4,635 bases of DNA from a virus. Its lineage: Duplodnaviria > Heunggongvirae > Uroviricota > Caudoviricetes. The notes under the pieces are model-generated. The model searched no databases. It was not told the DNA's origin and saw only the letters and a program-made list of their open reading frames with translations. Both the position numbers and the translations under genes were made by a program. Where the stretch lies: the IMG/VR virus record IMGVR_UViG_2740892423_000025; one strand, 5' to 3'. Each line of letters starts with the position of its first letter. The stretch's first letter is position 1. This document shows, piece after piece, positions 1 through 4,462 of this stretch.

Positions 1-387
1 GTGCAATATTTAAAAGGAACGCCATTACATCAGGCCCGATTTGCAGGCGTCAGGATTACATGTCCTTCAGAGCTTTCCTCTTCAATAGAGGAGTATTTTA
101 AAAATAATGGATTTGATATAGGTCGTGTGACTTGCTTCTCTGCGAATGCACCCGATATGCTTAGTGTTACGTTTGAGTTGCTCTCACGGGCGAAAAAATT
201 TGCAGAGGTTATTATGGGGTTATTGAACAGGAATGATGTCGAAGTTGAATTACACCTTTGTACCAGAGACGATGAGCCTAAAACTGCAAAGCTCAAATTA
301 AGAAACCTCAAAGATGTTGATGCGTGTGAGCGTCTGATTGATAAACTGGCTGCAGTGGTAATAACGCCAAAGAAAAATGAAGAATAA
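1..387 (+). CDS. hypothetical protein, probably 5'-truncated at the window edge (family not recognised)
   Basis: Frame open from base 1 to TAA at 385-387. The GTG at 1 cannot be tested as a true start because no upstream sequence is in the window. Followed 24 nt later by an intrinsic terminator. Amino-acid composition looks protein-like. Confidence 0.5.
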   Translation: MQYLKGTPLHQARFAGVRITCPSELSSSIEEYFKNNGFDIGRVTCFSANAPDMLSVTFELLSRAKKFAEVIMGLLNRNDVEVELHLCTRDDEPKTAKLKLRNLKDVDACERLIDKLAAVVITPKKNEE

Positions 388-677: not shown

Positions 678-780
678 AGCACTTGCTCCTTTTTCGGAGA
701 GGCGCTAACCTACGACTTGCGAAGGTTGTATGGCTAGGGCCTCGGGTTAACGTTAAAGTTGACTCGGGGCCTTTCCACAT
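541..780 (-). CDS. mok-like overlapping reading frame (79 codons) that fully overlaps the hok-like ORF in another frame
   Basis: ATG at 780-778 preceded by GAAGG. In-frame stop just upstream (793-795) fixes the maximal extent. Ends at TAA 543-541, 7 nt beyond the hok stop, the arrangement described for mok/hok. The protein sequence itself is not diagnostic. Confidence 0.4.
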   Translation of the reverse strand: MWKGPESTLTLTRGPSHTTFASRRLAPLRKRSKCYVAKIANRHHHTVRDGNPHHLDVAGFALRDTDELLGSGVCGVLTV

Positions 781-829: not shown

Positions 830-859
830 ATTCTAGCCTGGTTTTTTCCCTTGTTTCAA
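830..859 (-). promoter_or_regulatory. candidate sigma70 promoter of the hok-like transcript
   Basis: On the - strand: -35 TTGAAA (859-854), 18-nt spacer, -10 TAGAAT (835-830). Predicted start near 823, giving a transcript of about 410 nt to the terminator at about 415, similar to the roughly 400-nt hok mRNA of R1. Confidence 0.35.
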
Positions 860-863
860 TCCG

Positions 864-891
864 TTGAGGCCTCTCAGCCTTCTGATATAAA
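864..891 (+). promoter_or_regulatory. candidate strong sigma70 promoter with extended -10, driving the 898-964 small RNA
   Basis: -35 TTGAGG (864-869), 16-nt spacer, TG at 883-884, -10 TATAAA (886-891). Predicted start at G898 or A899. Confidence 0.45.
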
Positions 892-897
892 ATTCCC

Positions 898-964
898 GAC
901 CGCAGACATTATTCAGTCACGCATTTGATACATGCTTCCGCCGGCGTTCGCGCCGGTTTTTTTT
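898..964 (+). ncRNA. candidate ~67-nt small RNA, divergent from the hok-like gene (possible Sok-like antitoxin RNA; relation to the toxin unproven)
   Basis: Bounded by the promoter at 864-891 and the terminator at 941-964. No ORF with an SD inside. Possible small stem 921-924/932-935. Size matches type I antitoxin RNAs (Sok is about 64 nt). It does not overlap the predicted toxin mRNA (about 415-823). Confidence 0.4.
941..964 (+). terminator. rho-independent terminator
   Basis: Perfect 6-bp GC stem ccggcg (941-946) / cgccgg (951-956), tetraloop ttcg, followed by eight T (957-964). Confidence 0.65.
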
Positions 965-981
965 CGTCCTGTTGCTGCGTA

Positions 982-1239
982 GATCGTCATGTGCGATCGA
1001 GGCGCGGTATTGATCCTTTTTTCAGTTTAATTTTGACTCTTAATTTTACGCAGGCCGCGCCGCGTCTGGCTTCGTTGTTTGACGATTTTTTGATGCGATC
1101 CTTTCGCGATCGTGTCTTGTCCCACGTAAAGTATGAAAACTCTTTTAATATCATGCTGTTTTATTGCTACTGCCATTTGTGCGATCGTAAAAACCACTCT
1201 GAAAACTGCAAAAAATTTCAAAGCGTGAAATTTCAGATC
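982..1239. other. cluster of seven GATC (Dam) sites, three in the context GCGATCG; TGTGCGATCG occurs twice
   Basis: GATC at 982, 995, 1012, 1097, 1108, 1183 and 1236 (first base), counted by eye. 10-mer TGTGCGATCG at 990-999 and 1178-1187; CGCGATCG at 1105-1112. Confidence 0.5.
1213..1233. promoter_or_regulatory. AT-rich perfect palindrome AAATTTCA-N5-TGAAATTT, possible dimeric regulator site
   Basis: 1213-1220 aaatttca and 1226-1233 tgaaattt are exact reverse complements around a 5-nt spacer. GATC at 1236 lies 3 nt downstream. Confidence 0.3.
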
Positions 1240-1345
1240 TTCGCTTTTCCCTCAGTTGCTGCGCGGGCTGGCGGTCAGTTTTGCACGGCAGAAAACTGAA
1301 AAACTGTTTCGACACAAAACCCGCGGGTTGGAGGGGGTAGCGCGG

Positions 1346-1385
1346 TTTACGTCACCTCACGCTTTACGTCACACCGTTTACGCGG
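1346..1385. repeat. direct repeats of TTTACG(TCAC): two exact 10-mers and a third partial copy
   Basis: tttacgtcac at 1346-1355 and 1363-1372; tttacg again at 1377-1382. The third copy sits inside the inverted repeat cacaccg (1369-1375) / cggtgtg (1382-1388). Confidence 0.35.
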
Positions 1386-3777: not shown

Positions 3778-4462
3778 GTAGTGCTTCCCTTAGTGATGAG
3801 AGATCATCGCCGACGAACAGCATCACAGCTGTAAAAACCCACTCAGGGTGTGGGATGTTTTTTTGTATCAGCACTGCGGCCTGGCTGAGGGCTCCCTTGT
3901 AGCAAAAGCGCCACACCGGGCAAAATTTTTGCCGGAGTGCGGCCTGCTGATCAGCGATTTCCTGTAGAGCTTTATCTCTCGCATTCATGAACTGATGCAG
4001 TGATGATGACAATGTTTCCGGTGATGTGGCGGCAGGAGTGGCTGCCTGTGCAATGGTTGCCGCCAGCGACATGCTGCGAGTGGTCTGTGTCGACAGCATT
4101 ATCGGTTCCGGAAGTGATGTTGCCGGTCTGGCGGGGATTTGCATTCTGCTGATGGCCAGTGAAAGCTGGCTGGAGATCATGCGGGACATTCGTCCCACCT
4201 CCGGCAACGGAAATGCGCCTGAAAATTGCCTGGCGAGTGATAAAAACTCGCCAGCAGAAGGAGCGCAAAATAACAGCGCCACAATGTCCTTTTCTGTGTT
4301 TTCTTTCAGATAGGGTAAAAGTGCAGATACAGCATTTTCGGGGCTGAGATAACGCCCCGATGGTTTGATGTTTCCGGTATTTTCTGACCATGGATGCAGG
4401 CAAACCACAGAGCATTTAATGTTCATGGCTGACGGGCGCAGAATTGCCTTTTCCCATTTCAT
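3749..4462 (-). CDS. hypothetical protein, 237 aa, with an S/T/A/P-rich central linker and Cys pairs (C-x3-C N-terminal; C-x5-C and C-x-C C-terminal)
   Basis: ATG 4462-4460 with SD GGAGAG. Start overlaps the stop of the upstream partial gene (ATGA). 3' end overlaps the 191-aa gene start by 29 nt. No family recognised. Confidence 0.6.
   Translation of the reverse strand: MKWEKAILRPSAMNIKCSVVCLHPWSENTGNIKPSGRYLSPENAVSALLPYLKENTEKDIVALLFCAPSAGEFLSLARQFSGAFPLPEVGRMSRMISSQLSLAISRMQIPARPATSLPEPIMLSTQTTRSMSLAATIAQAATPAATSPETLSSSLHQFMNARDKALQEIADQQAALRQKFCPVWRFCYKGALSQAAVLIQKNIPHPEWVFTAVMLFVGDDLSSLREALHDPDDCPCA

Follow-up and report, generated by a model that had tools for sequence, protein, structure and literature searches.

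Our analysis suggests that a compact promoter-terminator unit at 864-964 on the + strand of the 4,635-nt stretch of phage DNA studied here (the window) probably gives rise to a non-coding RNA of ~65 nt, which is carried as prophage cargo beside a hok/sok locus. As a tentative reading, held with slightly more doubt than belief, we propose that the unit is expressed as a free-standing prophage sRNA, which would act in trans through base pairing. An earlier note made from the letters of the DNA had described a near-consensus extended -10 promoter, a canonical GC-stem plus T8 terminator and a 67-nt non-coding segment, all of which we recovered. It had also suggested, from size and position, that the RNA is an antitoxin of the adjoining type I toxin, and this part of the note is not supported by our data.

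The unit has the features of an sRNA gene, i.e. its own promoter (with the exception of one clade of relatives, STEC313), an intrinsic terminator with a long U-tail and no coding capacity. The promoter scan of the + strand found the -35 hexamer TTGAGG at 864-869 and, after an 18-nt spacer, TAAAAT at 888-893, with 9 matches out of 12. The same bases on this strand can also be read as TTGAGG, a 16-nt spacer and TATAAA at 886-891 preceded by TG at 883-884, i.e. as a canonical extended -10, and the -10 region TGATATAAAAT (883-893) holds both readings. Such a match alone is not significant, as the window has two promoter-like matches while 3.7 are expected in shuffled sequences. The intrinsic terminator, GCCGGCG-TTCG-CGCCGGT at 940-957 (+), is a stem-loop of six G-C pairs and one G-U pair with a UUCG loop, and it leads into a run of eight T at 957-964, counting the last base of the stem. 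Terminators of such quality (at least 7 pairs, at least 6 of them G-C, and at least 7 T) occur at 0.002 per dinucleotide-shuffled window over both strands, and were found in one of 1000 shuffles. The sigma-70-type promoter lies ~35-45 nt upstream of the terminator, and from the shuffle density the chance of a same-strand promoter match within 100 nt upstream is ~0.04.

The predicted + strand transcript runs from ~898-900, a predicted start, to ~962-964 and is 63-67 nt long. Its 5' body (898-939) is mostly unstructured, and in the predicted fold, whose z score is only -1.5 to -1.8, the terminator hairpin is preceded by an open 5' region. The segment has no open reading frame with a ribosome-binding site, and its sole ATG (932) reads through the terminator. 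The T-run varies from 5 to 9 among relatives, which breaks any reading frame across the unit, and on these two grounds we rejected the possibility of a small protein. No LexA box was found by eye at the promoter. Our Rfam search of 850-1000 and of the whole window gave no family at the gathering threshold, the best hit in the unit being rseX with 17.8 bits against 50. The unit of the diverged relative L046 likewise gave only sub-threshold hits, the best being rseX (23.1) and OmrA-B (20.2), and these sub-threshold matches to the unit rest on the terminator.

The unit resides in a prophage that combines a P2-type capsid module with an HP1-like tail module and also encodes ogr, a replication endonuclease and an integrase; its 191-aa ORF matches Pfam HP1_ORF34. 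We found matches to window 852-1010 in 41 of 5426 complete E. coli genomes at 83-99% identity, and the window also matches E. albertii NBRC 107761, while the phage and plasmid collections gave no DNA match to the unit. The strains with the element are not among the standard laboratory strains. The order in strain A36 is serS, hok, the unit and the tail genes, and in STEC316 the integrase end abuts dmsA, the neighbour of serS in E. coli K-12. The genes beyond hok vary by strain and include DUF4875, TagO/T6SS genes, a serine acetyltransferase, com with a DNA methyltransferase, and the 128-aa ORF of the window, which is annotated as 'RuvC family protein' in one genome and has no Pfam match. The slot at 1-387 (+) and its equivalents in the relatives L001-L009 hold a different cargo gene in almost every strain. 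The conserved phage backbone begins at ~985-1010, and the relative L038 carries unrelated cargo up to that point. The strain-variable genes on one side and the backbone on the other place the unit and hok/sok in a variable cargo zone. This zone is terminal in the HP1/P2-like prophage, bounded by the conserved backbone on one side and by the attachment site on the other.

Two further observations concern the prophage as a whole. The STEC316 prophage (L062) encodes ParM and a partition/stability protein at 26366-27644, adjoining the replication endonuclease, which suggests that maintenance as a plasmid may also be possible for it. The hok end of this prophage abuts flk and a second copy is present in the strain, while the A36 prophage (L001) lies beside serS; the two sets of flanks suggest a chromosomal rearrangement between prophage copies.

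The backbone next to the unit starts with a conserved non-coding stretch (985-1445), which is ~70% identical in Edwardsiella prophages. It has seven GATC sites in 255 nt (982, 995, 1012, 1097, 1108, 1183 and 1236), most of them kept in those prophages, against 10 in the other ~4400 nt of the window. The stretch lies just after the 565-aa ORF, the counterpart of orf35 of HP1/HP2, and this counterpart is the last gene before the record end in HP2, phiO18P, SW3 and ESSI-2-like phages. Since the gene is terminal in phage records, 985-1445 is probably the cos/packaging region, judging from the sequence comparison. The public RefSeq record NC_049395.1 (Escherichia phage ESSI2_ev015, L074) contains the Illumina Nextera adapter TCGTCGGCAGCGTCAGATGTGTATAAGAGACAG at 16-48, which is a contamination. 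The adapter is followed by GTAGCGCCGTTTTTG, which aligns with window 1337-1351; the alignment gives a weak hint that a physical DNA end possibly lies near 1337. A triple direct repeat of the TTTACG(TCAC) type is found at 1346-1382, i.e. TTTACGTCAC at 1346-1355, TTTACGTCAC again at 1363-1372 and TTTACG at 1377-1382. It is almost invariant in the E. coli relatives and looks like a putative protein-binding site. The motif TTTACGTC is present twice in the relatives L032/L042, within the sequence that takes the place of the sRNA unit. The same backbone contains a 31-aa hydrophobic ORF, MKTLLISCCFIATAICAIVKTTLKTAKNFKA, at 1133-1228 (+), which resembles a small membrane peptide; the relatives carry non-conservative substitutions in it (A36: ...SACFLSPAIHEIVKIPL...), so that it is probably not coding.

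On the other side of the unit, the hok toxin gene (47 aa, 534-677 on the - strand) matches Pfam HOK_GEF with 29.3 bits against a cut-off of 22, and in relatives the gene is annotated as a member of the Hok/Gef family. A 79-aa frame in the ORF list (541-780, -) overlaps hok and corresponds to mok, with its start codon at 780-778. The leader of the hok mRNA (664-823, -), which includes this start codon, was identified by Rfam RF01794, the sok model, which covers the hok leader region. The model aligns end to end at 823-664 (-) with 41.9 bits (E 3.6e-07), which is lower than the gathering score of 59, and automatic annotation would hence miss this hok/sok allele. The hok promoter found by our scan (830-859, -; TTGAAA at 859-854 and TAGAAT at 835-830) is conserved in relatives and stands back to back with the candidate promoter. 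The region 469-851 shares ~83% identity with Stx phages. A strong hairpin at 417-448 (AAAAAGCCCGCG...CGCGGGCTTTTT), flanked by A and T runs, separates the 128-aa ORF from the 3' end of the hok mRNA; it is potentially a bidirectional terminator and is the source of a spurious Rfam Thr_leader match.

The antitoxin of this hok gene is predicted to be a Sok RNA encoded at ~718-778 on the + strand, cis-antisense to the hok leader, rather than the RNA of the unit at 864-964. The prediction rests on the fold of this region (z = -4.7) and on the analogy with sokW, and the ends are inferred. The closest relative that has been studied is hokW-sokW of prophage Sp5, whose antitoxin has a 71-nt complementarity to the 5' UTR of hokW (PMC8621323). 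A putative Sok promoter, with TTGCTC at 683-688 and TAACCT at 706-711 (+), can be read off the sequence. In the predicted Sok a single-stranded 5' tail precedes a long hairpin (736-772), and the hairpin has only UUUCC after it.

The unit lies in a place that does not suit a Sok-type antitoxin. The hok mRNA starts at ~823 and its promoter occupies 859-830, which puts the whole unit outside the hok mRNA; the unit starts 4 nt past the -35 hexamer of hok and runs in the opposite direction. A Sok-type antisense RNA is encoded opposite the hok/mok leader, and the unit has no overlap with it. Antitoxins acting in trans on type I toxins have ~16 nt or more of continuous complementarity, while the longest Watson-Crick helix between the candidate and the hok mRNA is 8 nt, which is equalled by 30% of shuffles. 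With G-U pairs allowed the longest helix is 10 nt, equalled by 72% of shuffles, and the duplex energy is inside the shuffle range. The duplex with the Sok region is no stronger than in shuffles either (-17.3 kcal/mol against a shuffle mean of -23.4). The RF01794 model found nothing in 850-1000 even at E up to 10, its sole match in the window being the one at 664-823.

We therefore consider it very unlikely that the RNA of the unit controls the adjacent hok, as antitoxin or as second regulator, by acting in trans like IstR-1, OhsC or OrzO. Such a role would be in keeping with the divergent, back-to-back arrangement, in which only 4 nt (18 nt in L046) separate the two -35 hexamers, and with the unit being found only beside hok in the lineages that possess it. 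Both alleles, that of the window and that of L046, can also pair weakly with the mok start region, in a helix of 8-10 bp with many G-U pairs. The L046 RNA forms one 13-bp helix, with three G-U pairs, with its own hok mRNA, but the window allele cannot pair at that site, and we found no pairing site with the hok mRNA common to the two alleles. Besides the lack of overlap and the chance-level pairing, this role is opposed by a Sok that is predicted to be normal, and by the presence of hok/sok without the unit in L041, L065, P88, Chuche and 933W. The cases of L041 and L065 indicate that hok/sok does not need the unit. Moreover, the STEC313 clade has acquired a different hok allele, with the exchange reaching to ~904, and has kept the same RNA body.

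The comparison with relatives argues for a real transcription unit. We counted variable sites among 28 distinct sequences of the main clade, leaving out four sequences of the STEC313 clade. The numbers are 2 of 6 for the -35 hexamer, 8 of 16 for the spacer, 2 of 8 for the -10 zone, 8 of 35 for the body, 3 of 18 for the terminator and 32 of 95 for the downstream flank (966-1060). Such numbers would be expected if the promoter works and the RNA is under some constraint; we give them small weight, because the close relatives are all recent copies and their conservation says little. The -35 reads TTGAG or TTGGG in all main-clade relatives, the -10 reads TAAAAT or TAGAAT in the main clade, L039 and L046, and the terminator stem is kept wherever the unit is present. 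L039 (~90% identical) has ~7 substitutions in the body and keeps the promoter and the terminator, and L066 has two changes in the stem, G-U to A-U and G-C to G-U, which preserve the pairing. The most informative relative is L046, which is ~78% identical across the window. It has TTGAAT, a 17-nt spacer and TAAAAT at 3834-3862, and a terminator with the same stem and a different loop at 3914-3932, followed by a T-run to 3940, in the same place as in the window. Its RNA body is only about half identical to that of the window by eye. The retention of both signals in place despite this divergence argues for a real transcription unit, and the drift of the body speaks against a seed under strong conservation.

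The unit is not a fixed part of these phages. It is absent from L041/L065, L032/L042, L038 and the Edwardsiella prophages, and is thus dispensable for the phage. In the STEC313 clade (8 of the 41 genomes) the -10 is replaced by GTGCAT and no promoter is recognisable, while the body and the terminator are kept; the donor of this promoter sequence was searched for and the sequence was seen only in the same eight genomes. Scans of viral contigs and metagenomes with the conserved backbone as anchor found only the window-type, L039 and L046 alleles and the unit-less L041/L065 type.

One could regard the unit as a decaying remnant or neutral passenger, i.e. a promoter-terminator pair that an older cargo gene left behind and that no longer has a function, and we judge this to be unlikely. 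The presence/absence polymorphism, the loss of the -10 in the STEC313 clade, the shortening of the T-run to 5 in some copies and the drift of the body between alleles are all in line with decay. However, a remnant would hardly be expected to keep both promoter and terminator at the ~78% overall identity of L046, or to have a terminator whose quality is so far above chance.

The chief rival to the sRNA reading, which we regard as possible but doubtful, is that the terminator or the act of transcription is functional and the RNA is a by-product. The terminator at 940-964 (+) would then act as an insulator, halting the transcription that leaves hok/sok before it enters the conserved non-coding backbone, which is probably the packaging site, and crosses the late tail operon in antisense direction. 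The transcription to be halted would come either from read-through past a weak Sok terminator or from the promoter at 864-893. Read-through is plausible, given that the predicted Sok hairpin is followed only by UUUCC, and the unit is oriented towards the conserved backbone and towards the late operon's end. The terminator is also the best-kept part of the unit, persisting without the -10 in the STEC313 clade and with the same stem in L046 despite the divergence of the body. On the other hand, L046 retains a good promoter directly upstream, which an insulator alone would not need, and the hexamers are kept while the spacer varies, which suggests selection on the promoter. L041 and L065, with their hok/sok, manage without any such insulator.

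It is also conceivable, though we find it quite improbable, that selection acts on the promoter-terminator cassette rather than on the RNA sequence, with the act of transcription being what counts, for example through its effect on local supercoiling or on the occupancy of the hok promoter or of cos. Transcription would then start next to the hok promoter, run towards the presumed packaging (cos) region and be strongly terminated after a short distance. Selection of this kind would explain why L046 keeps the promoter, the terminator and their spacing with a body that is only about half identical.

The reading that we favour is the trans-acting sRNA. A free-standing, sigma-70-driven unit would produce an RNA of ~65 nt, made up of ~40 nt of largely single-stranded sequence, a G+C-rich hairpin and a U-tail. 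The location in the cargo zone between the backbone and the attachment site suggests that this RNA would be made in the lysogen. Its 5' part would pair with a host or phage mRNA, and the terminator hairpin with the U-tail would serve as the Hfq-binding end. We infer here that the unit is transcribed, where its transcript starts, and that the RNA depends on Hfq and acts in trans. The sequence support consists of a terminator far beyond chance with a promoter upstream, hexamers that vary less than the spacer between them, the retention of these signals in L046, L039 and L066, and a predicted fold with an open 5' region and a hairpin.

Several observations count against the sRNA reading. The 5' part that is predicted to be open is the same part in which the alleles of the window and of L046 share only about half of their positions, so a seed conserved between the two is poorly supported by the comparison. 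The STEC313 clade has no recognisable -10, several relatives have no unit and the Rfam searches gave no family match above threshold. An Hfq-binding module ideally is U-rich just upstream of the hairpin. The window allele has CUUCC there, which is not U-rich and hence not ideal. Our search for pairing targets among the translation-start regions of 48 prophage genes (those of L062) gave a best z of -2.5, for gpM, which is at chance level.

The candidate resembles several known small RNAs. Like Sok, it would be a small non-coding RNA (~60-70 nt) with its own constitutive promoter, a single-stranded 5' part and a 3' hairpin, and it shares the locus and the strand with the predicted Sok. The difference is that Sok is cis-antisense to the hok leader (71 nt in the case of sokW) while the candidate is outside the hok mRNA, with complementarity not beyond chance. 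The candidate also resembles IstR-1/tisB, OhsC/shoB, OrzO/zorO and RalA/ralR in being a short RNA divergent from the toxin promoter region. IstR-1, OhsC and OrzO have ~16-20 nt of continuous complementarity to their toxin mRNAs. The corresponding stretch in RalA is 16 nt (PMC4041452). The candidate differs from all four in its match of only 8 nt and in that the adjacent toxin already has a predicted cis antitoxin.

Another short phage RNA is OOP of phage lambda, which has ~77 nt and consists of a constitutive promoter immediately followed by an intrinsic terminator, and which is antisense to the 3' end of cII. The candidate is likewise a very short phage unit in which a promoter is followed by an intrinsic terminator, but no gene lies opposite to it.

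Prophage cargo zones are known homes of Hfq-type sRNAs, often with Sok nearby (bioRxiv 10.64898/2026.05.13.724894). The candidate resembles PasA-D, AgvB, AsxR, Esr41, STnc100 and DicF in being prophage cargo with a 3' stem-loop and poly-U (bioRxiv 10.64898/2026.05.13.724894). It further shares with the Hfq-type sRNAs of Escherichia prophages the patchy occurrence among strains, the sequence variants, the presence/absence polymorphism and the frequent proximity of Sok. Those known sRNAs belong to lambdoid/Stx-type prophages and have experimental support, whereas the candidate belongs to an HP1/P2-like prophage and is predicted from sequence. We rejected the possibility that the unit is itself a Pas sRNA, as the Pas genes are in lambdoid/Stx prophages (1362 genomes), while the unit was matched by 41 E. 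coli genomes and by none of the phage records; our search for a Pas link to the candidate sequence found none. The corresponding slot in other hok-bearing phages is occupied differently. In 933W lom follows directly after the hok promoter, so that a gene of this kind would not fit, in P88 the slot holds an unannotated ogr-like gene, and in Chuche ogr lies only ~33 nt past the hok match.

The understanding of hok/sok is unaltered by these results, which indicate that a small RNA adjoining a type I toxin is not necessarily its antitoxin. If the unit is transcribed, it would represent a previously undescribed sRNA that travels as co-cargo with hok/sok in an HP1/P2-like temperate Escherichia phage. 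With at least two strongly diverged alleles and a presence/absence polymorphism, it would add to the growing list of prophage-borne regulators and would offer a small and easy system for studying the origin and turnover of such genes.
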